DNA of 63,210 nucleotides from Candidatus Nomurabacteria bacterium (GCA_943354745.1 CALRDB010000003.1:1-63210); one strand, 5' to 3'; shown: positions 4,367 to 35,951, numbered from the stretch's first letter. Made by a program: numbers and translations. The notes: generated by a model not told the origin, from the sequence alone.

Positions 4367-6310
4367 TTAGTCAAAGAAGATGGTCTTCCCGCCTCCTTCG
4401 AGATAGTTCTCAGCCTGCAGGAATTCCTCATCAATGTCAAAGATGAATTCTGAAGGGACCGTTACCTGTCGTGAGCCGAAAATGGTTCGTACTCCGGCAT
4501 AGGTAAGGAACACTCGCTTCTTCGCCCTTGTTAATGCTACATAGAAAAGCCGGCGTTCTTCCTCTTTGGCACTTTCATCCTTAGTCTCGTTCATACGTTC
4601 GTGTGGGAACAGCCCTTCTTCAAGCCCTGCGATAAAGACATACTCAAACTCCAGTCCCTTTGAAGCGTGTACGGTCATAAGACGCACCGCGGGTTTTTCA
4701 TCTTTGAGCTCATCCTGATCACTTTGGAGTGCTATATCTGCAAGAAATTTATCAACACCTACTTCCCGAGCAACTTCGTGGTCGTAGCGCATCGCAAATG
4801 TGACGAGCTCTCTGATGTTTTCCAAACGCTCCTCATCTTCGCTTCCCCCTTTCTTGAGTTCTCCTTCGAGACCGCTTGCGGTGACAATCCACTTAATTGC
4901 AGATGAAAGGGGTTCAGTACGAAGTTTTTCTTGCAGTTCGGTGAGCAGTTTTCTAAACGAACCTATTTTCACCCGCATAGTGGCCGGGAGTTCTTCCTCT
5001 TTCCCCGCAAAGATTTTGAGGAGCGTTACTTTTCCAATACCACGGGGAGGAACATTGATAATACGGCGTAGATCAGCAAGACTCTCGGGATTTTCAGCCG
5101 CGCGGACATAGGAGAGAATATCTTTTATTTCCCTTCTTTCAAAAAATCTGACGCCAAGCACCTGATAGGAAACCTCTTCGCGGAGGAATGCCTCTTCGAG
5201 CGCTCGGCTTTGGAAATTCGCTCTAAACAGCACCGCGATTTCCGAGGGTGACACACCCTCAGTGATGAGTTGTTTCGATCTCTGTGCGATAAAGGAGGCT
5301 TCCTGCACTTCATCGTATGCGGTAAAGAGCCCCACTTTTTCCCCGTTGTTGTTTTTGGTAAACAACGTTTTGGGAGGACGCATCTTGTTTTTCTCGATAA
5401 TGCGGTTTGCTACCGTGAGAATGGTTTGCGTTGAACGGTAGTTCTCCTCAAGAAAAACAATCTTAGCGTTTTGGTAGTCCTTTTCAAAACCGAGAATATT
5501 TTTGATACTAGCGCCCCTCCATGAATAAATATTTTGGTCTGCATCACCCACAACAGCAATGTTTTTGTGTGACTCTGCCAATAATTTTGCGATCATATAC
5601 TGAACGTGGTTCGTATCCTGGTATTCATCAATATGGACGTAATTCCAAAGCTTTTGGTAGTGTTCCCGCACACCTTCGTCGTTTTTTAAGAGTAATGCGG
5701 TTTTAAGGAGGAGGTCATCAAAATCAAGTGCCTTTTCTTTCTTTAGAACAGCTTCATATTTTTCCCATATATCCGCGACGATGGCAGGCATGTAATCGCC
5801 ATTGGCGCGCTCCTTGAACATTTCCAGTGTTACCATCTTCCCTTTCTCTCGACTGATAGCCCCGAGAATTTTTCCCGGCTCAAAATTCTTCGGGTCAAGA
5901 TTGGTTTCTCTGACGGCTTCTTTAACCGCTTGGACTGCATCACTCTTATCAAAAATAGTGAATCTCTTAGAAAGTCCTAGTCGCTGACTGTTCTCTCGGA
6001 GGATATACACACCAAGCGCATGGAAAGTCCCGAGCCAGGGGAAGGTCGGAAGGGCTGGGTGGTCTGGCGAAAGTGAAGGGTCCGTTGTAATAAGAGCGTG
6101 TACACGCTCGCGCATCTCTTTCGCGGCTTTATTGGTGAAGGTTATAGCGAGAATTGAATGAGGAGCAACTCCCTTCTTAATGAGGTGGAGAATTCTGTGG
6201 GTGATCACACGAGTTTTTCCGGCACCAGCTCCCGCGACGATAAGGAGAGGTCCTTCGGTGTGAAGAACCGCTTCTTTTTGTCGGTCGTTTAGTCCTTCGA
6301 GGTACTGCAT
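4367..6310 (-). CDS. pcrA: ATP-dependent DNA helicase PcrA/UvrD (start reassigned to MQYLEGLN at 6310)
   Basis: AGAGAGKT Walker A, AITFTNKAA, IDEYQDTN, LMTVHASKGLEF, EERRLFYVALTRAK. Confidence 0.95.
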   Translation of the reverse strand: MQYLEGLNDRQKEAVLHTEGPLLIVAGAGAGKTRVITHRILHLIKKGVAPHSILAITFTNKAAKEMRERVHALITTDPSLSPDHPALPTFPWLGTFHALGVYILRENSQRLGLSKRFTIFDKSDAVQAVKEAVRETNLDPKNFEPGKILGAISREKGKMVTLEMFKERANGDYMPAIVADIWEKYEAVLKKEKALDFDDLLLKTALLLKNDEGVREHYQKLWNYVHIDEYQDTNHVQYMIAKLLAESHKNIAVVGDADQNIYSWRGASIKNILGFEKDYQNAKIVFLEENYRSTQTILTVANRIIEKNKMRPPKTLFTKNNNGEKVGLFTAYDEVQEASFIAQRSKQLITEGVSPSEIAVLFRANFQSRALEEAFLREEVSYQVLGVRFFERREIKDILSYVRAAENPESLADLRRIINVPPRGIGKVTLLKIFAGKEEELPATMRVKIGSFRKLLTELQEKLRTEPLSSAIKWIVTASGLEGELKKGGSEDEERLENIRELVTFAMRYDHEVAREVGVDKFLADIALQSDQDELKDEKPAVRLMTVHASKGLEFEYVFIAGLEEGLFPHERMNETKDESAKEEERRLFYVALTRAKKRVFLTYAGVRTIFGSRQVTVPSEFIFDIDEEFLQAENYLEGGGKTIFFD

Positions 6311-6463
6311 TGCGTGAGTACTATAACATGCAGTGGTAACTGGAACACGTAACAGTAACAAGTAACTGGAACAAAAGAGAAACAATGGTTCTTCTGTTTT
6401 AAGTTCCAGTCACCTGTCCTAGTTCCCGTTATTTTTCGTTATCCACAGGCTACTCTTTTTTGA

Positions 6464-6492
6464 TTGACTTTACGCTTTTAAACCGCTATAGT
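6464..6492 (+). promoter_or_regulatory. Sigma70-type promoter for the LysM/M23 gene
   Basis: TTGACT-17 bp-TATAGT. Confidence 0.65.
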
Positions 6493-6662
6493 AGAAGTGT
6501 CCTGGAAGGATGGATGATTGAAAAGAATGGCCTAAGTAGGCCGTTTTTAACGGGAGGAACCACAGACACGATAACCGAGAGCAGAGCTTTTAAAGTAACC
6601 TGATTAGTGCACATGTCATTATCACAAGAACCCATGTAATTCCTCGTAGGGTTTCTGTCATC

Positions 6663-7793
6663 TTGATAGCACGTCAGTTTCTCAAAAGTTCTCCTTCCGG
6701 CCTTTCTTTTATAGTAAAATTACCTAACAACCATAGTTACAGAACACCTCTTTTCCGGTGCACGGTTGCCAAAACGGCTAACTATATAGGCTATGCCGTT
6801 GCATGGCTCTTTGTCCTATCCCTCCTTCTGACACCTTCCTCGGTCAATGCCGGCGTCGTTTCCTTCGTGTTTGGGTTGTTTGCCGAACAAGTTGAGGCTG
6901 AAGTTACAACTTCTCCTCTTAATTCTCAAAATATCGGGCTTTTGTCTGCGGCAATTAATCCTAATCCAAACTTTGCAAAAGGAGGCGGCGATATTACCGT
7001 GGTAGGAGGAACGGCACTTCTCTCGGAAACCGGCCCTGAGGGGACCCTCGCCAATATTGAGGAAAATCAAAGCTCAACTATCAGTGTGTATGTAGTACGT
7101 GAAGGAGACACACTTGGTGATATTGCCAAAATGTTTGGCGTAACCACCAATACGATTGCCTGGGCTAACGAAATCACTCGTGGGGCTATCCGACCAGGCC
7201 AAACACTCATTATTCTTCCAATTTCAGGTGTGCGTCACCTGGTGGCGAAGAATGAGACGATTCAAAGCATTGCCAAGAAGTATAAAGCAGATGTGACCGA
7301 AATTGCGCAGTACAACCATCTTTCTGAGAATGCGAAACTTGCGATTGGTGATGTTGTCTTAGTCCCCGAGGGAGAAATAGCGCCCCCTCCTTCCGTTGGA
7401 GCAACAGGACGACCCGCGAAACTTCGTGGAAATAATGGGCCGGATCTTGAGGGATACTATCTTCGACCACTTATTGGTGGACGAAAGTCGCAAGGGCTCC
7501 ATGGGTATAACGGTATTGATTTGGCAAGTTACTTAGGTGCCCCCATTCTCGCCGCCGCTGCTGGAGAGGTGATTATCGCCAAAGGAGCTGGATGGAATGG
7601 AGGGTATGGTAACTATATTGTTATCGCACACCCAAACGGTACGCAAACATTATATGGTCACCTCTCTGCTCTTGCCGTTACCTCAGGAAAGTCAGTCACT
7701 CGTGGCGAGATTATCGGATACCTAGGAAACACGGGACGTTCAACAGGACCACATCTCCATTTCGAGGTTCGAGGAGCGAAGAATCCGTTTTAA
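6663..7793 (+). CDS. LysM + M23 family peptidoglycan endopeptidase (start uncertain)
   Basis: Two LysM domains (YVVREGDTLGDIAKMFGV; HLVAKNETIQSIAKKY); M23 motifs HGYNGIDLA, TLYGHL, STGPHLHFEVRG. Confidence 0.92.
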   Translation: MIARQFLKSSPSGLSFIVKLPNNHSYRTPLFRCTVAKTANYIGYAVAWLFVLSLLLTPSSVNAGVVSFVFGLFAEQVEAEVTTSPLNSQNIGLLSAAINPNPNFAKGGGDITVVGGTALLSETGPEGTLANIEENQSSTISVYVVREGDTLGDIAKMFGVTTNTIAWANEITRGAIRPGQTLIILPISGVRHLVAKNETIQSIAKKYKADVTEIAQYNHLSENAKLAIGDVVLVPEGEIAPPPSVGATGRPAKLRGNNGPDLEGYYLRPLIGGRKSQGLHGYNGIDLASYLGAPILAAAAGEVIIAKGAGWNGGYGNYIVIAHPNGTQTLYGHLSALAVTSGKSVTRGEIIGYLGNTGRSTGPHLHFEVRGAKNPF

Positions 7794-7823
7794 CTAATAA
7801 GTGGCTAGTAGAAAGTAGATAAG

Positions 7824-7851
7824 AAAAAACCGCCCTGTTGGGCGGTTTTTT
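7824..7851. terminator. Bidirectional intrinsic terminator
   Basis: aaaaaaccgccc-tgtt-gggcggtttttt. Confidence 0.85.
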
Positions 7852-7867
7852 GTTCATTTGACTAAGT

Positions 7868-7937
7868 TTACAACTAGATTACAACCGTTTCTAATAGGTT
7901 ACAACTGCTTGACAACCGATCTGCACCTGTTTACAAT
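7868..7937 (+). promoter_or_regulatory. Sigma70 promoter overlapped by phased TTACAAC repeats
   Basis: TTGACA(7909)-17 bp-TACAAT(7932); TTACAAC-like units at 7868, 7879, 7899, 7910 and 7931. Confidence 0.7.
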
Positions 7938-7949
7938 AGGTTTACTACT

Positions 7950-9017
7950 ATGTTATCAAATCAAGAAAGAGTTCTGGTTTTTGCCATCAAAAAGAAACAT
8001 CTGCGCACAGCCGATGTGGTTTCTCTCTTGAATGTCTCACGACAACGAGCCCATGCTTTATTGAGTAATCTTGTTAAGGAAGAAAAATTAGTAAAGCTCG
8101 GCTCTACCGCAAAAGCTTCATATGCTCTTCCAGAGTATGCGCAAACACATTTAGAGATATACCCCATACGGTTTCATAAAATCTATGCTAACTCGGAACT
8201 TGAAGAGGAAATTGTCTTGAGAGAAGTTGAGAGTCGATGGCCTTACATACGAACCTTGCGTGAAAATATCTCTTATATCTTTCGATATGGCTTCTTGGAA
8301 ATGCTTAACAATGCAATAGAGCATTCAGAATCGCGTTCTGTAGAAGTAGAGATAGTTCTCAAAGGTAGTATCCTCAATTTTGTGATAAACGACTCAGGCG
8401 TGGGGGTCTTTCGCAATATTATGAAGAAGAAACATCTTCTTTCAGAATTGGAAGCAATACAAGATGTAATGAAAGGTAAACTGACCACCGCTCCGGAAAA
8501 CCATTCGGGTCAAGGTATCTTCTTTACCTCGAAGATGGCCGATGTGTTTTATCTCGAGAGTTTTGAATATCAATTGATTATGAATAATCGTGTTGAGGAT
8601 GTCTTTTTGAAGAAGCCTAAGAAAACCAAACGAGGAACACGAGTAAGCTTTAGCATTGCTTTAGATTCACAGCGAAAGACTGAGGATGTGTTCAAGAAGT
8701 ACACTAACCTAGGAGAGCACAGCGATTACGGGTTTGATCGCACGGAAGTAAAAGTTAAACTTTACACCCGGGAGGGAAGCTACCTTTCGAGATCTCAGGC
8801 TCGACGAATCTTGGTTGGACTGGATAAATTTGAATCTATCATCTTTGACTTCAAGAAAGTAGAAACCGTTGGGCAGGCATTTGCCGATGAAATATTTCGA
8901 GTGTTCCACTCACGATATCCAGATATAAAGTTGATATCGACTAATATGAACGAGTCGGTTCAGTTCATGGTTAAACGTGTTGATTTAGGTGAACACGAAA
9001 CGAAACCTCTTTTTTAG
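7950..9017 (+). CDS. wHTH + GHKL (HATPase) + STAS-like DUF4325 domain protein
   Basis: N-terminal HTH (VVSLLNVSRQRAHALL); EMLNNAIEHS, NDSGVG and HSGQGIF boxes; C-terminal FDFKKVETVGQAFADEIF. Confidence 0.8.
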   Translation: MLSNQERVLVFAIKKKHLRTADVVSLLNVSRQRAHALLSNLVKEEKLVKLGSTAKASYALPEYAQTHLEIYPIRFHKIYANSELEEEIVLREVESRWPYIRTLRENISYIFRYGFLEMLNNAIEHSESRSVEVEIVLKGSILNFVINDSGVGVFRNIMKKKHLLSELEAIQDVMKGKLTTAPENHSGQGIFFTSKMADVFYLESFEYQLIMNNRVEDVFLKKPKKTKRGTRVSFSIALDSQRKTEDVFKKYTNLGEHSDYGFDRTEVKVKLYTREGSYLSRSQARRILVGLDKFESIIFDFKKVETVGQAFADEIFRVFHSRYPDIKLISTNMNESVQFMVKRVDLGEHETKPLF

Positions 9018-9130
9018 AGTAAATAGGTCTTCTTCCTGAGGTCTGGACAGTTACCACAAGATATATTGACGTACCTATATTTGTATGGTAGTGTCCTTGC
9101 AAACGAACAGTTCTTTTACTCCAACAAAAA

Positions 9131-9757
9131 ATGATAAATCTATCTGAATTCCTTACGCTCGCTGCCCTCCATGTTGCCGTGGTAATCAGTCCCGGCCCAA
9201 ACCTAACGCTGGTGGCAAAAAATAGCGTGACCATGCATTTCCGCTTGGCCATCTACTGTGTTCTTGGGATCGCAACTGGCGCGTTTCTCCACGTTTGTCT
9301 TGCAATCTTGGGATTGAGCGCTTTCGTGCTTACATACCCGATGTTGTATCTATTTCTGCAGCTCTTTGGCGCTGTGTACCTGGTGTACGTCGGTACCAAA
9401 GCTGTTCGGACCAAAGCGTACAATCTCGAAGAACAAGTTGCTCTGGCAACGGAAACCTCAACCGCCCACGTCGCGTTCAGCGAGGGGTTCATCAATATGA
9501 TGAGTAACCCGAAGGCGTACCTCTTCATCTTTGCCCTGTTCACACAGGTGGTAGGTGCGACACCGGTAGCGATCAAGCTTCTCTACGGACTTTGGATGTC
9601 CGCCGTTGACATCGTATGGTTTGCGTCTGTTGCGTACGTCCTTTCTCGACCAAGCGTCAAGATTCGCTTCACCGCTAGGTTGCACTACCTGGCTCGGGGA
9701 TTTGGAATCGTTCTAATCGGTTTCGGGGTATGGATATTCATTTCTGCCTTTCGGTAG
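9131..9757 (+). CDS. LysE/RhtB family amino-acid exporter
   Basis: ISPGPN motif, GAVYLVYVG, NPKA motif, six hydrophobic segments. Confidence 0.88.
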   Translation: MINLSEFLTLAALHVAVVISPGPNLTLVAKNSVTMHFRLAIYCVLGIATGAFLHVCLAILGLSAFVLTYPMLYLFLQLFGAVYLVYVGTKAVRTKAYNLEEQVALATETSTAHVAFSEGFINMMSNPKAYLFIFALFTQVVGATPVAIKLLYGLWMSAVDIVWFASVAYVLSRPSVKIRFTARLHYLARGFGIVLIGFGVWIFISAFR

Positions 9758-9786
9758 CCGTGCATCATTCAAACCCCAACACTCTC

Positions 9787-9818
9787 AACCGCCCCGAGGT
9801 TATATCGGGGCGGTTTTT
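9787..9818 (+). terminator. Intrinsic terminator
   Basis: aaccgccccga-ggttata-tcggggcggttttt. Confidence 0.8.
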
Positions 9819-9848
9819 CTTATTCATATTCCAAGTGTTCATTACGAG

Positions 9849-11423
9849 CTACGAGTTCTGCAACTGCTTCGGACGATACTGGAGAGCTTCCATGAGGTCA
9901 CCTGTGGTGATCTCGTCATGACCTTCAAGGTCGGCGACGGTGCGGGCGAGTTTAATGAGTCGATGATACGAACGGGCTGATAGGTCGTGTTTCTTCGCCG
10001 CTAGGTTTAGCGCCACTTTCACCTCATCGGAGAGCGGAATTGCGACCGCAATGTCGCGAGGGCCGACATCACTGTTTGTTGTGAATGGAAGTTTTAATTT
10101 TTTGTAGCGCTCCTGTGCTCTTGCTCTCGCCACCACAACTTTCTTGCGCACCTGTTCACTCGTCTCCTCGCTCCCGCGTCCCTCGGTCAGTTTTTCATGT
10201 TCTACTATCGATACTTCAGTCCACAGGTCGATACGGTCCACAATTGGGCCGGATATTTTCCGCTTATAGCGATCTATTTGGTGTTGACCGCAGTCACATC
10301 GCTTCCCTTTCACCCCATTATTACCACACGGACAAGGGTTCATGGCGGTGATAAGCGTGAAATGCGCTGGAAACTGCGCCGAACCTTTGACACGAGCAAT
10401 ACTGACCACGCGATCTTCAAGAGGTTGGCGGAGCGCATCAATCACTCGACGCTCAAACTCAGGAAACTCATCTAAAAACAGCACTCCTCGATGCGCGAGG
10501 GTGATCTCACCAGGCTTAGGTGTGGCTCCTCCGCCAACGAGTGCAATATACGATGCCGTGTGGTGTGGTGAACGAAATGGAGGATAGGTGATGAGTGGTT
10601 CTTGGAGTGTGCCAGCAACCGAATGAATACCCGTGACTTCAAGTGCTTGTTCGATATCAAGTGGGGGAAGGATTGAGATAAATGCTTTTGCTAGAAGCGT
10701 CTTCCCTGTTCCGGGCGGTCCCCACATAGCGATGTTGTGTCCGCCGGCTGCGGCGATTTCAAGTCCACGTTTTGCCGTTCTTTGCCCTTTAACATCTGCG
10801 AAATCAACTTGGTATTCGCGTGTCCCGACCTCAAACCGGGTTTGCGGCGTCGGCTTCATCTTTTTCTTCTGGACGAACGGCCGGTCTTCATCGGGTAAGA
10901 TATCTTTCTCGGTGAGATGGGCACAGAGTTCCCATAGATTTTTCACCCCATACACCTCAATTCCATCAATAAGCGCCGCTTCCGTCGAGTTACCAAAAGG
11001 GACGTATATTTCCTTGAAACCTAAACGCTTCGCTTCGCGTACGATAGGAAGCACTCCATGAATTGGTTGTACCATACCATCGAGAGAGAGTTCCCCAACA
11101 AACAGTTTTCCTTTTACTTCGGCAGACAAGCACTTAGAGGCGATAAGATAACCTACCGCCATCGGAAGATCAAAGCTCGGTCCCTCTTTTTTCGTGTCGG
11201 CGGGAGCAAGCGAGATGACGATTTTGTGGTTCTTTTGTTTCGGCGATTTGAAACCAGTGTTCTTAATGGCAGCAGAAATCCGATCTTTTGCTTCCTCTAC
11301 GGCTTTGTCGGGGAGGCCGACAATTGAAAACGCGTTGAGTCCTTTGGATAGGTCAACCTCAACGCGTACGAGACCTGTTTTTAGGAGATGGACTTGGGCG
11401 GAACTAACTGTTGCAAAACTCAT
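9849..11423 (-). CDS. comM: YifB/ComM family AAA+ ATPase (Mg-chelatase-like helicase)
   Basis: IVGLPDKAVEEAKDRI, DLPMA, GPPGTGKT, FRSPHHTAS, LDEFPEF, AMNPCPCG, KISGPIVDRID. Confidence 0.92.
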   Translation of the reverse strand: MSFATVSSAQVHLLKTGLVRVEVDLSKGLNAFSIVGLPDKAVEEAKDRISAAIKNTGFKSPKQKNHKIVISLAPADTKKEGPSFDLPMAVGYLIASKCLSAEVKGKLFVGELSLDGMVQPIHGVLPIVREAKRLGFKEIYVPFGNSTEAALIDGIEVYGVKNLWELCAHLTEKDILPDEDRPFVQKKKMKPTPQTRFEVGTREYQVDFADVKGQRTAKRGLEIAAAGGHNIAMWGPPGTGKTLLAKAFISILPPLDIEQALEVTGIHSVAGTLQEPLITYPPFRSPHHTASYIALVGGGATPKPGEITLAHRGVLFLDEFPEFERRVIDALRQPLEDRVVSIARVKGSAQFPAHFTLITAMNPCPCGNNGVKGKRCDCGQHQIDRYKRKISGPIVDRIDLWTEVSIVEHEKLTEGRGSEETSEQVRKKVVVARARAQERYKKLKLPFTTNSDVGPRDIAVAIPLSDEVKVALNLAAKKHDLSARSYHRLIKLARTVADLEGHDEITTGDLMEALQYRPKQLQNS

Positions 11424-29226: not shown

Positions 29227-29263
29227 AAATAAAAACCCGACAACCGTTTGATTGGTTGTCGGG
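29227..29263 (-). terminator. Intrinsic terminator of the cupin-PLP operon
   Basis: cccgacaacc-loop-ggttgtcggg-tttttattt on the minus strand. Confidence 0.75.
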
Positions 29264-29373
29264 GAAGTCGTTGAGTCGTGCCTTTACATGAGGTGCCGAC
29301 TCGTTTAAACCTTACTACCCGTTAAAGGTAGACGGGGCTGTAAACTCTTTAGTGTACGAACACCCTTTACCGA

Positions 29374-30072
29374 CTATGCGATATTCCAAATCAGAGCTCC
29401 TTTGGTTGCATGCTCCTTCACGAACCGCCAGATTTTGGAATCGTACCAAGGGGAAGACGGGTAGGGTGGCGGAAACTCTCCTCGGTCTGTCGGTTTCTCC
29501 GGTGCTTGGTACACCGTCCCCATCATGAGAGCATTTGGCATCATTCCCAAGTTCACAGTGTTTATTCGTGCCTCCGGCCACGCCATTGCCAGACATCGTG
29601 AGGTGGTGCCGGACCCTCCCGCCACCCATACTTCTTCAGGTCGAACGGGAAGATTTCGTGCCATTTCCACCAAGTGTTCCACAAACATCTTACACTCGAA
29701 GCCGATTGGCATATAATACGCACTCCGCATTTCTGCATAATGTTCGGCCAACCCAGCTAAGTTCTTTTGGTGAGCCACCCCTTCCATAAAGTAGCAAGTT
29801 ATGTTGTTCAATGACCGTGCTTTCGCATGGATGCAGGTCATCACTTCCGGTCCCGCAAAGAACAAGGTTACTTTTTTGTTGTGGTAGAGGCCGGCCAGCC
29901 CCAATGCGTAACCGGAATGTCCGTATGCATGTCCCGCGTACACAACTTCTTGTTCTGGTATTTGTGGAAACACTTCCGCTACGCACTTTGCCTTGATGCC
30001 TCCGGGAAAGAGGTCACCTCTCACGACGTTGAAACCGTCGTGCTCCTGCAGTATCAGTCTGTGGAATTCCAT
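29374..30072 (-). CDS. Minimal fold-type II (TrpB/cysteine synthase/ACC deaminase-like) PLP-dependent enzyme
   Basis: VVRGDLFPGGIKAK (candidate PLP Lys), WVAGGSGTT phosphate loop, PPPYPS..YDSKIW and IWNIA terminus. Confidence 0.7.
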   Translation of the reverse strand: MEFHRLILQEHDGFNVVRGDLFPGGIKAKCVAEVFPQIPEQEVVYAGHAYGHSGYALGLAGLYHNKKVTLFFAGPEVMTCIHAKARSLNNITCYFMEGVAHQKNLAGLAEHYAEMRSAYYMPIGFECKMFVEHLVEMARNLPVRPEEVWVAGGSGTTSRCLAMAWPEARINTVNLGMMPNALMMGTVYQAPEKPTDRGEFPPPYPSSPWYDSKIWRFVKEHATKGALIWNIA

Positions 30073-30091
30073 ATAAGTTTCCTTTCTGGTT

Positions 30092-30490
30092 TTATCTGCC
30101 TACAACGGTTAGGCGTTTTTCGCTGCCCGCCGGTTGATGATCGTTGCCGATGGAGATAAGTACCAGTTCAGTCTCCGCTTTGATTGCGTGCGGCGCATAC
30201 GGTGGTACAAGGTAAGTCATCCCCTCGAACATGGAGTACGGCCTTCCGCAGTACACAAGCACTCCCTTTCCTTTGGTCACCATAAGAATGTGCGCCCCCG
30301 GATGCGTATGCATATCAACGCCCAAGCCTGCTGGAAAGCGGATGACATCCGCGCCGAATTTATCGGAAAGTACCAACGGAAGGGCACTGCCATAGCTGTG
30401 CGCCATCTGAATCGGTTGTACCCCCTCGAATGACACAAGTTGTCCATTGATGAAGTCGCACCATTTGGATTGAATCAGTCCTGTTTGCAT
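30092..30490 (-). CDS. Cupin domain protein (ATG at 30490)
   Basis: HTHPGAHILMVTKGKG and PPYAPHAI cupin metal motifs. Confidence 0.85.
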   Translation of the reverse strand: MQTGLIQSKWCDFINGQLVSFEGVQPIQMAHSYGSALPLVLSDKFGADVIRFPAGLGVDMHTHPGAHILMVTKGKGVLVYCGRPYSMFEGMTYLVPPYAPHAIKAETELVLISIGNDHQPAGSEKRLTVVGR

Positions 30491-30607
30491 AGTTTTCAAT
30501 TTTCCTTTCTGCCCAAAACGATACCGTTTAGAGTGCGAGTGGCAAACAGGACTCGCGAGTGGTACTTACCACCTTTACAAATCCACGGCCATATGTATAA
30601 TTATCCT

Positions 30608-30671
30608 GTCATTCCACTGAAAAGTGGAATCCAGAGAAAGTAAGACTGGATTCCCGCCTATGCGGGAATGA
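30608..30671. repeat. GTCATTCC-family palindromic element
   Basis: gtcattccactgaaaagtggaatccag...ctggattcccgcctatgcgggaatga, directly upstream of a TrmB gene. Confidence 0.75.
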
Positions 30672-30680
30672 TAGAAAAAC

Positions 30681-31445
30681 ATGGACCACCAGGAACTACT
30701 CCAATCACTCGGACTATCCAAGAACGAGGCCAAGATATATGAAACCCTGCTTAGGCAGGGCGAGGTGGGCGTTGGTGTTATCTCGGAGAAATCCGGCGTG
30801 CATCGACGGAATGTGTACGATTCGCTGAACCGTCTTATGGAAAAGGGTCTTGTATTCGAGGTTGTTGAGTCGGTTGAGAACAAGTATCAGGCGTGTGAGC
30901 CGAAGAAGCTCACCGAGATAGTGATCGAGAAATTGGAGGCGGTAGACAAAGCATTGCCCGAACTTGAGAAACTCCACTTCAGTACTCCATCCACGTATCG
31001 CGTGCACACCTATCGCGGCAAAGAGGGGTGGAAACAGTACATGCGTGACATCATCAAGACCGGTGAGCCGTTCTACTCTATCGCCGCGCAGGGCGCGTGG
31101 CTGGATGAGCGAGTGAAATCATTTATTCCGGCTTTCCTCCAACAGCTCAAGGCAAAAAAGATACCGATGCACCATTTGTTTGATTATGAGGTGAAAGAAA
31201 ACAATCATCCGATTATCAAAGAGGTGGGTAAGGACTACAAATTTCTTCCGAAAAAGTACGCCACCACTTCAGGTATTGATATTTTCGGCGACCACGTGAA
31301 CATCATGCATCACCAGACCTTGGGCAAGGTCGGTACCGACGACGAAATTACCTTTACAGTTATTGTGAACAAAAATCTTGCCGATTCATTTCGAACTTGG
31401 TTTCAGTACATGTGGGACATGTGTCCGAAAACGAACGCGGACTGA
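30681..31445 (+). CDS. TrmB family transcriptional regulator
   Basis: LGLSKNEAKIYETLL..GVHRRNVYDSL wHTH; TYRGKEG effector domain; IDIFGDHV. Confidence 0.88.
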   Translation: MDHQELLQSLGLSKNEAKIYETLLRQGEVGVGVISEKSGVHRRNVYDSLNRLMEKGLVFEVVESVENKYQACEPKKLTEIVIEKLEAVDKALPELEKLHFSTPSTYRVHTYRGKEGWKQYMRDIIKTGEPFYSIAAQGAWLDERVKSFIPAFLQQLKAKKIPMHHLFDYEVKENNHPIIKEVGKDYKFLPKKYATTSGIDIFGDHVNIMHHQTLGKVGTDDEITFTVIVNKNLADSFRTWFQYMWDMCPKTNAD

Positions 31446-31520: not shown

Positions 31521-31823
31521 ATGAATAAAACTATCATCAATATCAAAACGGACAGGGATGTGAAGGCGAAGGCGCAAAAGGTGGCCAAGAAGCTTGGCAT
31601 GCCCCTCTCAACCGTGATTAACGGTTACCTCCGCGAATTCGTGCGCACCGAGACGGTGCATTTCTCGCTTCGGGATTCTCTGCCGCTGGGCAAACCGGAA
31701 GGGGTGCTCAAACCCGCTGTGGCTCGCCGTCTCGCACGGATACACAAGGATATTGTGGAGGGAAAAAATCTCGTTGGCCCGTTCAACTCTGCGAAAGAAG
31801 CGATTTCCTATTTGCGAAGCTGA
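31521..31823 (+). CDS. RelB/DinJ-like RHH antitoxin
   Basis: IINIKTDRDVKAKAQKVAKKLGMPLSTVINGYLREF. Confidence 0.8.
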   Translation: MNKTIINIKTDRDVKAKAQKVAKKLGMPLSTVINGYLREFVRTETVHFSLRDSLPLGKPEGVLKPAVARRLARIHKDIVEGKNLVGPFNSAKEAISYLRS

Positions 31824-32083
31824 TGCGCATAGATTTTCACCGCACATTCAAGAAGCAATACAAGAGAGCTCCCGCCAAAATTCGGGAGCAGTTTAACGAA
31901 CGACTCCAATTGTTTGAAGACAACCCCTTCCATCCTCTTTTGGTTAATCACGCGCTTGGAGGTGACCGACTGGGCAAGTGGAGTATCAACATCACCGGAA
32001 ACTGGCGAGCGTTATATGTCTTTCAAGACGCGGAAACAGTTGTCTTTGTTGAGATAGGGACGCATCCTCAACTATATGGATAA
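31823..32083 (+). CDS. RelE/YafQ-family mRNA interferase toxin
   Basis: FHRTFKKQYK, NHALGG, SINITGNWRALY, IGTHPQLYG; TGATG-coupled to the antitoxin. Confidence 0.85.
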   Translation: MRIDFHRTFKKQYKRAPAKIREQFNERLQLFEDNPFHPLLVNHALGGDRLGKWSINITGNWRALYVFQDAETVVFVEIGTHPQLYG

Positions 32084-32843: not shown

Positions 32844-33956
32844 CTATTTAGCTGATTTCTGCAGCTTAAAAATAGCAAAATCCTTGACCTTCCTCCCCTT
32901 GAGCTCGTATTCCGGTGTGAAGAGGGTGTCCACGAGATCCAAACCGGCTTCTTTGAACGCCGCCGTATACCATTCTATCGGCCGGTGCGATTCGATGATC
33001 TCATAATTACCCTCCTTCTTTATCTTTTTATAGTTGTGGTTGTCTTCGTACTTATGCTTGGTCTGCATCCTAAAATCAATTTTTGACTCGGGCACATCGA
33101 ATATGAGTGGGTTGCAGAAACCGACATAGACCGTGCCCCCCTCCTTAACTTTGAGGTATATATTCTTTAGAATATTTTTTACTTCCTTTTCCGGGACAAT
33201 ACAGAGCACGAGATTGCAGATTATGATGTTAAAGTAACTATGCGGGATGTCTTCGACTTTTTTGTATACATTTTCGCGGCCGATCCTCTCACCCGCTCTC
33301 ATCCGCATGTCGGGTGAGATGTCGAACAGTCTGCTGTCAGCTCCCTTCGCCTTGAGAGCTGTGGCCAATACCGCAGGCCCGCCCCCGTAATCAAGCACTT
33401 TTTTATTCTTGAGATTGCCGAGCAACGGAATCAGGGTGTTATCGTAGTACGCTAACTTTATCTTCTCGGACTCAAGCTCCTTTAGCACCTTTCCCCACTG
33501 GCGCTGGCCGGAAACCAGTATCCTGTTGGAATCCCACATGATCTTCCAGAATTTATCGTACGATTCTGCAGCGATTTTATTCGATATGAGAATCCCAATC
33601 GGGATTTTGGTCCAAATGATGATACCTATTTTGTCATTGCGGATTATTGTTTCCGTGAGCGGCTCAAATGATTTCTTTATAAACTTGTATTCCGTCTTCG
33701 GATACTTGTTGTCCCCCGTCCAATCTTTCAAAGACTCATTGAAAATGAGCTTCGCGTTGATTCCTAATTTTGCTCTCTCTTTGTGATACTGCGTCCAGAA
33801 ATCGTCGCCTAGCATCAGTGACTCTTTTGCGGAACCAAAAGTATGGTGATCCTTCCCACCGGCATTAAGCAGAACGGCCAGTAATTCTTTTACCTCGCCA
33901 ATCCCTTCATAAGAAACTATATGATGAGCCGTTAATTTGTGTGACGCATTCGGCAT
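32844..33956 (-). CDS. Fusion of a TrmB effector-type domain (no HTH) with a class I SAM methyltransferase (start MPNASH at 33956)
   Basis: N-half resembles the C-terminal halves of the local TrmB proteins (SYEGIGE, FWTQYHKERAKLGI, NDKIGII, SYDKFWKIMW); C-half VLDYGGGPAV, ICNLVLC. Confidence 0.7.
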   Translation of the reverse strand: MPNASHKLTAHHIVSYEGIGEVKELLAVLLNAGGKDHHTFGSAKESLMLGDDFWTQYHKERAKLGINAKLIFNESLKDWTGDNKYPKTEYKFIKKSFEPLTETIIRNDKIGIIIWTKIPIGILISNKIAAESYDKFWKIMWDSNRILVSGQRQWGKVLKELESEKIKLAYYDNTLIPLLGNLKNKKVLDYGGGPAVLATALKAKGADSRLFDISPDMRMRAGERIGRENVYKKVEDIPHSYFNIIICNLVLCIVPEKEVKNILKNIYLKVKEGGTVYVGFCNPLIFDVPESKIDFRMQTKHKYEDNHNYKKIKKEGNYEIIESHRPIEWYTAAFKEAGLDLVDTLFTPEYELKGRKVKDFAIFKLQKSAK

Positions 33957-33957
33957 G

Positions 33958-35259
33958 TTATCTTGAAAGCAACATACTAAGCAAAAGTATGACTGTTGAG
34001 CCAATCAAATACGCATTCATGTCTCGCCATTTACCCCGTACGGCAAACAACACAAGAAAAGCGGCAAATCCGGCAAACATCGCTTTGTCGAGTCCAAAGG
34101 TCCAAATAGTCACCAAAATCATTATCGCTACCGCGACAATGTCAGTCCAAGAGTACTCTTTCAAATCTTTTTTACTTGGAAACAGCATTAGACCGACAAA
34201 GAATAACGCACCTGTGGTAGCGACAACCGGAATGAGGTTTATGAGCGGCACAAGAAACAAGAAGAGTGACATCAAGAGCGCAACTACGACCGCAACCAGT
34301 CCGGTTCTGCCACCTTCTCCAATGCCAACCGCACTTTCCACATACGTAATTAAGTTTGATGTTCCGGTTGCCGCGCCGATAACCGTTCCAGCCCCGTCAA
34401 CAATTAGTCCCTCTTTGAGACGAGGCAAATTTCCCTCACTATCGACAATATTGGTGTTTCTGGTAAGGCCGATAAACTTTGCGATACTTCCGTAGAAATC
34501 AAGAATAAAAAGTACGATAATGACAGACCAGATTTTTGGGTCAAAAATAATACGCCAATCAAACGCAAAAGTTCCGGCTAACATATCTTTGGACAGTGTG
34601 ATGGGCTCGATTGGCTGTGCCACTCCTAAAAAATGAGCAAGGATTGCCGCGCCAATGATACTCAGAATAACGGCACCCTTAATTTTGAAGTGCTTCAATA
34701 TCGCAACCAGAATAAGACCGGCACAAAAGATGATTGCTTCGTGAGAAGTGAGCAACCCTAAGCCTGTAACCTGAATTCCCTCATAGGCGAGTATGCCACT
34801 CACTTTGAGAGCAATAAGCATCAGGAAAACACCAACCGCCGCGGCAAGTCCTGATTTAAGTTTGTCCGGAATTGCTTTAACGATATTTACTCGGAGTGGT
34901 GTATAGCTGAGGAGAACGGTAAAAACTCCGGACCAAAAGACTGCCCCTAACGCACCTTGCCATGTAAAACCTAAAACACCCACAACGACGTAAGCAACAT
35001 ACGCATTCATTTCCAGTCCAGGCGCGACAGCGAACGGCAGTCTTGCCCAGACACCCATCAAAAGAGTTGCGATGACAGAACCTAGAATTGTCGCAAAAAA
35101 AGCAACACTCGTGTTGATTCCTGCGGCCGATAAGATTGCCGGATTAACGACAAAGATATATGAAAGAGAAAGAAACGTTGAAAGACCCGCAAAAATCTCA
35201 ATCCTAAAAGACGAGCCAAGTCTTGTTATTCCAAAGAAATCATCCAGTCTTTTTAGCAT
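33958..35259 (-). CDS. NCS2 family (AzgA/PbuG-like) nucleobase permease
   Basis: EIFAGLSTFLSLSYIFVVNPAIL, APGLEMNAY, TYVESAVGIGEGGRTGL; about 12-13 TM. Confidence 0.9.
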   Translation of the reverse strand: MLKRLDDFFGITRLGSSFRIEIFAGLSTFLSLSYIFVVNPAILSAAGINTSVAFFATILGSVIATLLMGVWARLPFAVAPGLEMNAYVAYVVVGVLGFTWQGALGAVFWSGVFTVLLSYTPLRVNIVKAIPDKLKSGLAAAVGVFLMLIALKVSGILAYEGIQVTGLGLLTSHEAIIFCAGLILVAILKHFKIKGAVILSIIGAAILAHFLGVAQPIEPITLSKDMLAGTFAFDWRIIFDPKIWSVIIVLFILDFYGSIAKFIGLTRNTNIVDSEGNLPRLKEGLIVDGAGTVIGAATGTSNLITYVESAVGIGEGGRTGLVAVVVALLMSLFLFLVPLINLIPVVATTGALFFVGLMLFPSKKDLKEYSWTDIVAVAIMILVTIWTFGLDKAMFAGFAAFLVLFAVRGKWRDMNAYLIGSTVILLLSMLLSR

Positions 35260-35750: not shown

Positions 35751-35881
35751 CAATATTTTACAGTAATAAGGCTAATCTGCAATATAATATTGCAAAATAA
35801 GGATAAAAAAGTGTTGACGAAGTATTGACAACAAAGGTATTTTTGCTACTATAGGACCTACGCACTTTTACTTTTTTGGGT

Positions 35882-35951
35882 GTCATTCCCTTGAAAAGGG
35901 GAATCCAGAGTATGTAGTATGGTCCTGGATTCCCGCCTCCGCGGGAATGAC
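35882..35951. repeat. GTCATTCCC-family palindromic element
   Basis: gtcattcccttgaaaaggggaatccag...ctggattcccgcctccgcgggaatgac, upstream of a TrmB gene. Confidence 0.8.

Follow-up and report, generated by a model that had tools for sequence, protein, structure and literature searches.

SbzM is a cupin dioxygenase of altemicidin/SB-203208 biosynthesis that converts L-cysteine to 2-sulfamoylacetaldehyde through sulfur oxidation, decarboxylation, and N-S rearrangement, and it can be activated by either Ni or Fe (PMC6331615). Its role is biosynthetic, reactive sulfonate-enamine intermediates are produced along the way, and homologs of the enzyme occur in secondary-metabolism-like clusters according to the same authors (PMC6331615). 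The protein was later described as a Ni-dependent sulfonamide synthase (PMC13126184). Cysteine dioxygenase (CDO), whose product cysteine sulfinate is then processed by PLP enzymes, provides another precedent for a two-step route. The known PLP enzymes downstream of CDO are of fold-type I. Among fold-type II enzymes, the D-cysteine desulfhydrase DcyD and the ACC deaminases have about 320-340 amino acids, and the cysteate sulfo-lyase CuyA belongs to the DcyD family.

The locus described here lies in a stretch of 63,210 nt from a Candidatus Nomurabacteria bacterium, the whole of which was analyzed and is called the window, and it encodes a cupin together with a minimal PLP protein. This cupin falls in the same subfamily as SbzM (PDB 9ug7) and has an identical HTHPGxH...PHA four-His set, but it is only 132 aa long, compared with 215-228 aa for SbzM, and is without the N-terminal extension of ~40-80 residues. 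Neither an SbzJ-type aldehyde dehydrogenase nor other sbz genes are found near the window cupin. Furthermore, the window cupin is paired, and in two related proteins fused, with a fold-type II PLP enzyme, whereas SbzM is not. The two-step logic is the same as that of the CDO route, by analogy only: CDO represents a different cupin family with a three-His site, whereas the window cupin has four His residues and no CDO Pfam match.

For the PLP protein, DcyD and ACC deaminase are the best structural matches. Its GGxK lysine motif and GS(G/A)GT loop align with those of DcyD, but the window protein is about 95 residues shorter (232 aa) and carries HAYGHSG where DcyD and ACC deaminase have a QSNH loop. 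Members of the same PLP family, at 27-35% identity, are found in phage ParB/methyltransferase/PLP trios and in methyltransferase-PLP fusions (vB_EliS_R6L gp1, Mae-JY30), and they share with the window protein its invariant Lys, Gly-loop, Asp, and Lys positions. The phage partner is DNA methyltransferase-like, sometimes with an AspH-like dioxygenase, in contrast to the SbzM-like cupin that accompanies the window protein in a separate clade. A limited and narrow literature search found no description of this PLP family or of a PLP/methyltransferase or cupin/PLP system.

Operon structure and flanking genes

Both reading frames were reread, and the coordinates given in a preliminary description of this DNA were found to be exact. 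The cupin gene occupies 30092-30490 on the minus strand and begins with the ATG at 30490, a start codon used by its relatives too, and it is followed on the same strand by the PLP-like gene at 29374-30072. The peptides quoted earlier for the PLP protein (VVRGDLFPGGIK, GGSGTT, YDSKIW, and IWNIA) are all present, as are the HTHPGAH...PHA motifs expected of what had been called a His-motif cupin. Direct reading of the 19-nt intergenic spacer (30073-30091, minus strand) reveals the SD-like site AAGGAAAC located 6-7 nt ahead of the PLP ATG, and a similar site, GAAAGGAAAA, precedes the cupin ATG; both are of the AAGGA type. The short spacer and its SD-like site together indicate that the two genes are co-transcribed. 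At a distance of 110 nt past the PLP stop codon, an intrinsic-terminator-like hairpin (29236-29263, minus strand) combines a 10-bp stem, including 7 GC pairs, with a T-run, and thus the clear SD and terminator that had been reported are both recovered. A second inverted repeat, GAGTCG...CGACTC, can be read from the sequence at 29273-29305, between the PLP stop codon and this hairpin. Rfam searches of the operon and its flanks returned a single chance-level match below threshold (E 0.36).

Upstream of the operon, a weak sigma-70-like promoter candidate (TTGCCA-16-TATCGT, 9/12, a consensus match only) is located at 30518-30545 on the minus strand. The divergent gene, at 30681-31445 on the plus strand, encodes a 254-aa TrmB-family regulator (Pfam TrmB, 1.5e-17) with a 95% identical ortholog in the close relative L002, and it is preceded by a strong promoter-like site (TTTACA-16-TATAAT, 11/12) at 30574-30601 on the plus strand. 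Between these divergent promoters is the palindrome GTGGTA-CT-TACCAC (30559-30572), which is conserved in L002 and is only suggestive as a TrmB operator. Control of the cassette by TrmB, as the preliminary description had proposed, is plausible, with this palindrome as a candidate operator only. TrmB adjoins the cassette only in the window and in the close CPR relatives L002 and L025, and not in L003, a locus from an alphaproteobacterial MAG.

The flanks of the operon contain several additional features. The endonuclease III gene (nth) is 1.7 kb from the cassette in the window, and a TrmB-nth module appears again at another place in the window, where it carries different cargo. A RelB/YafQ-type toxin-antitoxin pair (31521-32083) is inserted between trmB and nth. 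The two trmB paralogs of the window are just 25% identical. Just upstream of each is a two-hairpin element of ~70 nt, TGTCATTCC.CTGAAAAG.GGAATCCAG ... CTGGATTCCCGCCT..GCGGGAATGA, located at 30608-30680 and about 35830-35905, and the element is also found upstream of the L002 trmB ortholog (about 6345-6420). Possible identities of this element are a repeat or a 5' leader common to the trmB genes. The adjacency of ddl was considered as a hint of a D-amino-acid role and was rejected, as ddl is convergent with the cassette and the link is kept only in L002.

Folds and relatives of the two proteins

The cupin matches Pfam Cupin_2 at 7.7e-10, and the families listed by Pfam at E values up to 1 are Cupin_2, AraC_binding, Cupin_1, and Ectoine_synth, with CDO_I absent. 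Its predicted structure (pLDDT 95.1) is matched by Foldseek to SbzM (9ug7) with an E value of 1e-11, a TMq of 0.89-0.91, and 35% identity, whereas other cupins score 3e-7 or weaker. Sequence searches yield the same ranking: phmmer places SbzM at 2.2e-19, and a profile of the cupin family matches SbzM at 8.4e-31 across positions 5-131, with the next structure at 3e-12. The HxHx3H...H site (H61, H63, H67, and H101) is invariant in 32 relatives and aligns to the SbzM histidines, and the family-conserved residues R51, Y80, Y93, H118, and R126 are also present in SbzM. Judged by sequence comparison, the cupin is therefore a clear homolog of SbzM, which is its sole strong relative, a feature that the preliminary description had missed. 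This relationship points to cysteine, although an identity of 35% to SbzM leaves the cupin substrate unfixed at the level of sequence.

The PLP protein had been described earlier as a fold-II enzyme that is far shorter than usual, and structure prediction with superposition bears this out. Modeling of the protein with 33 relatives (AF2) gave a pLDDT of 95.5 and a pTM of 0.91, and Foldseek and VIA both assign the result to fold-type II. The closest VIA superposition is on the ACC-deaminase homolog 1j0a (PH0054), with a Z of 22.4 and an rmsd of 2.4 A over 230 of the 232 residues. ACC deaminases score about 21 (Z 20.6-22.4 across the group) and D-cysteine desulfhydrases Z 21-22 (DcyD 21.8); the alignments to 1j0a and DcyD cover 228-230 of 232 residues. 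Threonine synthase, serine dehydratase, and CysK follow close behind at Z about 20, and because these other fold-II enzymes score so well, membership in the ACC deaminase/DcyD family is tentative. On the evidence of the model, the protein is a trimmed yet complete two-domain core rather than a fragment, and its length of 232 aa reflects trimmed loops and termini, with no domain missing.

Sequence databases provide fewer clues. The protein has no Pfam PALP (PF00291) match, and its relatives reach just 17-31 bits against that model, below the gathering threshold of 35 bits. NCBIfam/TIGRFAM searches at E values up to 1 yielded no family, and searches of PDB sequences gave marginal matches to solved PLP enzymes at best. 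No match to the PLP protein was present in the plasmid collection searched, and no PADLOC model matched either the cupin or the PLP protein. Thus, the protein is a remote fold-II member on the basis of its modeled fold, and not through a curated Pfam model.

Key residues of a fold-II active site are nevertheless recognizable. The predicted Schiff-base lysine, K27, is located in a GGIK motif, is invariant in sets of 33 and of 46 relatives, and aligns with the lysine of TrpB GGAHK in a profile alignment. The phosphate loop GGSGTT spans residues 152-157. An hhalign comparison with E. coli DcyD, weak (E 0.01) yet consistent, places GGIK on the GGNK lysine and GGSGTT on the GSAGT loop. Residues invariant among the 33 relatives include G24, G25, K27, K66, E147, W149, G155, D211, K213, and W229. 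In the C-terminal YDSKIW motif, Y210, D211, and K213 are conserved and open the last helix of the model; the hhalign match to DcyD ended upstream of this region. This Tyr-acidic-x-Lys arrangement (Y-D-x-K, with D211) is a possible counterpart of the Y-E/T-G-K motif that ACC deaminase and DcyD have at the pyridine-nitrogen side of the cofactor. The substrate ('asparagine') loop, HAYGHSG, is unlike both the QSNH loop of DcyD and ACC deaminase and its counterpart in the methyltransferase-linked phage branch. Specificity is therefore not transferable from any known enzyme, as the loop fits neither group.

Distribution of the pair and of the wider PLP family

The pairing on which the preliminary description had built its proposal recurs outside the window, and the cupin and PLP genes are co-conserved in five adjacent loci and two fusions, so that the lack of co-conservation named in that description as grounds for refuting it is not what is observed. 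An SbzM-like cupin adjoins the PLP gene in four CPR loci (the window, L002, L025, and L009) and in the alphaproteobacterial L003, and the two domains are joined in two fusion proteins, P0032 (366 aa) and P0098 (376 aa). In L003, the pair is convergent, an orientation unlike that at the other loci, and it sits between the genes for the large (603 aa) and small (191 aa) subunits of acetolactate synthase (6286-9956), an arrangement that looks like an insertion into ilvIH. In a maximum-likelihood tree, rooted only at its midpoint and with gene context known for a minority of the P-numbered rows, the cupin-linked members form a single clade of 40 rows (SH-aLRT 100) nested among methyltransferase-linked members.

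Certain members of this clade have other neighbors. L010 has no cupin with its PLP gene in the available sequence and carries a sodium:solute symporter upstream, and no cupin is present within the 677 bp upstream of the PLP gene in L008. Neither L010 nor L007 has a cupin as the upstream neighbor of its PLP gene, and a cupin in L005 was rejected as a partner since it is sugar-isomerase-like rather than SbzM-like. Conversely, four viral-binned contigs encode SbzM-like cupins but no PLP gene. Two of these (L154 and L155) carry PAPS-reductase-like genes beside the cupin, while in L153 the neighbors are WelO5-like oxygenase, methyltransferase, and aaRS-like genes.

The cassette is a rare accessory trait, and related genomes very seldom contain either gene. 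Among 401 genomes of the same class, the cupin is found in the window's genome only, and the PLP gene is found in two, the other copy lying next to a dCMP deaminase in phage-like surroundings. The PLP gene is also present in one of 401 genomes of the phylum and in two of 401 from Pseudomonadota. At 0.515, the GC content of the cassette falls at the 98th percentile of the window. Comparison with the L002 cassette (6550-7684) reveals 63-70% amino-acid identity, compared with 95% for trmB and 83% for ddl, and dN values of 0.23-0.30 that are 2-10 times those of the flanking genes (0.03-0.11). Either fast evolution or allele replacement could account for this divergence. In the window and L002 alike, both open reading frames are uninterrupted and retain every invariant residue, and the PLP gene has a dN/dS of about 0.06 between the two, with dS saturated. 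The GC content and the raised dN are consistent with an accessory element that is under purifying selection and may have been exchanged.

Beyond the cupin-linked clade, the minimal PLP family is large and mostly viral in its nearest members. When 1.84 billion cluster representatives were searched with a profile, at least 1189 clusters at 50% identity were recovered (E <= 1e-10), with 545 at E <= 1e-30. The earlier statement that short PLP enzymes occur in phage is well borne out: PHROG 7093, labeled 'threonine dehydratase', matches the window protein at 3.4e-19, relatives are present in 53 viral contigs, and the nearest ESM-Atlas clusters are 71-100% viral. A link to base modification had also been suggested. 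This part of the claim holds for a methyltransferase-linked branch and is not visible for the cupin-linked clade.

Across the family, the PLP gene is usually accompanied by ParB/DNA-methyltransferase genes and by an AspH-like dioxygenase. A DNA methyltransferase-like gene lies within 1.5 kb of the PLP gene, or is fused to it, at more than 50 of 79 metagenome loci, and many of these methyltransferases are ParB-MTase forms with CPPY, SPPY, or a similar motif IV. Among 46 long PLP representatives, 17-20 are methyltransferase-PLP fusions and 8 are YunG-PLP fusions. Methyltransferase, AspH-like, and PLP domains can even share a single protein (1084 aa; L061 1211-4465), and on a complete proteobacterial chromosome a ParB-MTase-PLP trio has overlapping stop and start codons (G597; L149 7508-9895). 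Cultured phages that carry a methyltransferase-linked PLP gene are Erythrobacter phage vB_EliS_R6L (gp1) and Microcystis phage Mae-JY30 (L141 and L142), and the stand-alone PLP ORF of the latter is annotated 'DNA modification methylase'. These trios and fusions may represent an undescribed DNA-modification module. With locally built HMMs, no methyltransferase partner was detected adjoining the cassette of the window, of L002, or of L003, and the nearest methyltransferase-domain ORF in the window (32844-34004) is a generic class I enzyme 2.3 kb away.

Phage contigs also provide a different association, as an Asp/Asn beta-hydroxylase-domain protein of 366 aa is encoded directly upstream of the PLP gene at 44 of 52 loci in T4-like freshwater phage contigs. 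In this protein (for example L123 6851-7951, and 43 other viral loci), the beta-hydroxylase (DSBH) domain is C-terminal and the N-terminal half has no assignment. Its neighbors include peptide deformylase, 2OG oxygenase, dCMP deaminase, and SbcCD. Other architectures were encountered as well. L004 (5600-7708) is a further example of the ParB/xPPY MTase/PLP trios and MTase-PLP fusions, a YunG domain is fused N-terminally to the minimal PLP domain in L049 (5461-6693) and seven other representatives, and a giant-virus contig (L136 1902-8768) contains a 2288-aa frame with several glycosyltransferase domains and a C-terminal minimal PLP domain.

Candidate reactions and competing explanations

The preliminary description had proposed a two-step amino-acid tailoring pathway, and a two-enzyme amino-acid module is still the most economical reading given the adjacency and fusion of the cupin and PLP genes. 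Two independent pointers indicate sulfur amino acids: the sole strong relative of the cupin acts on L-cysteine, and the best structural relatives of the PLP protein include D-cysteine desulfhydrase. Because the cupin and PLP domains are fused in other proteins, they probably act together on a small sulfur amino acid. Our leading interpretation, held tentatively and with somewhat less than even confidence, is that the operon encodes a co-transcribed oxygenase and C-S/beta-lyase PLP module that acts on L-cysteine or a close thiol analog. Counting against it are the small structural edge of ACC deaminase and DcyD over other fold-II enzymes (Z 22.4 versus about 20), the marginal sequence matches to solved PLP enzymes, and a substrate loop unlike that of either group. 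The modest identity of the cupin to SbzM and its missing N-terminal extension, the clade members L010 and L008 with no cupin in the available sequence, and the viral SbzM-like cupins that have no PLP gene weigh in the same direction.

In such a module, the amino-thiolate would be bound on the Ni or Fe of the four-His cupin, and its sulfur would be oxidized with O2 in the manner of SbzM and cysteine dioxygenase. The PLP enzyme would form an external aldimine via K27 and would then carry out a beta-elimination or beta-replacement at the C-S bond. Its substrate might be the oxidized product, a cysteine-sulfinate or cysteate-like compound, as with the cysteate sulfo-lyase of the DcyD family. Alternatively, the PLP enzyme might act on the starting amino acid and thereby feed the cupin. 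The cassette itself would have originated from the larger, mostly phage-borne minimal-PLP family whose usual partners are DNA methyltransferases. A more specific history, possible but less probable than not by a wide measure, is that the family served ancestrally in phage DNA hypermodification, as part of a ParB/xPPY-methyltransferase/AspH-like/PLP assembly, and that the CPR cassette is an exapted offshoot, re-paired with an SbzM-type Ni/Fe cysteine oxygenase so as to act on a sulfur amino acid through novel chemistry of the C-S or S-N kind.

Several other explanations can be weighed against the same observations. SbzM is itself biosynthetic, with reactive intermediates and with homologs in secondary-metabolism-like clusters (PMC6331615), and the pair might likewise make a small reactive S-N metabolite that an episymbiotic CPR cell uses on its host or neighbors. 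The product could be an enamine-sulfonate, a sulfonamide-like aldehyde, or a beta-substituted alanine, with the PLP enzyme building or trapping an intermediate. The rarity and accessory nature of the cassette would agree with such a role, as would the L153 cupin beside WelO5-like, methyltransferase, and aaRS-like genes, and domain fusion would suit the channeling of an unstable intermediate. We nonetheless consider this unlikely, given that there are just two genes, with no adjoining aldehyde dehydrogenase, carrier protein, ligase, or exporter in the window. More doubtful still is a deaminase of the ACC-deaminase or threonine-dehydratase kind, which would turn an amino acid that contains no sulfur (ACC, threonine/serine, or a derivative of homoserine or methionine) into 2-oxobutyrate or pyruvate, while the cupin would assist as a hydroxylase or in the manner of an acireductone dioxygenase. 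ACC deaminases are indeed among the top structural matches (Z 20.6-22.4), and the invariant acidic D211 in Y-D-x-K may correspond to the ACC-deaminase Y-E-G-K. The threonine dehydratase label of PHROG 7093 and the position of the L003 cassette between acetolactate synthase subunit genes speak for this reading too. The phage PLP gene that follows an Asp/Asn beta-hydroxylase-like gene would fit a hydroxylate-then-dehydrate logic. However, the sole strong relative of the cupin is SbzM and not ARD or a 2OG hydroxylase, the name of PHROG 7093 is, like other PHROG names, an untested label, and the L003 placement is a single, insertion-like case.

The dominance of methyltransferase-like neighbors across the family (seen in the locus and fusion counts above, in L061, and in the cultured phages) raises the prospect of a nucleic-acid or SAM-linked role, in which the PLP enzyme would serve DNA modification and the cupin would replace the AspH-like dioxygenase. 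Although nth is only 1.7 kb away in the window, it is part of the TrmB-nth module that recurs with other cargo. Moreover, the cassette is without an adjoining methyltransferase-like gene in the window, L002, and L003, and the cupin clade is separate, well supported, and equipped with another substrate loop. We judge this role to be very unlikely. Finally, the cassette might be no more than inert cargo, left behind by phage or mobile DNA, decaying and without a function today, as could be suspected from its GC content at the 98th percentile, its dN at 2-10 times that of the flanks, and the extremely patchy distribution of the gene pair. This explanation strikes us as highly improbable, because neither the window nor L002 shows a broken reading frame or a lost invariant residue in either gene, the predicted expression signals are conserved, and the two domains have been fused in other lineages.

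The cupin and PLP folds are both already known, and it is the 232-aa PLP subfamily that has no Pfam or NCBIfam model and no characterized member. This subfamily spans phages, giant viruses, and bacteria. A new DNA modification may be marked by its sister branch, whose members are fused or translationally coupled with phage DNA methyltransferases and frequently carry the wrong label 'DNA modification methylase'. For the cupin-linked clade, the pairing and fusion of the two domains offer a Rosetta-stone clue that the two enzymes may share a new reaction on substrates resembling cysteine. If our preferred reading of an oxygenase and C-S/beta-lyase module is true, the operon would be a rare instance, among Patescibacteria, of a sulfur amino-acid pathway that is accessory and depends on oxygen.
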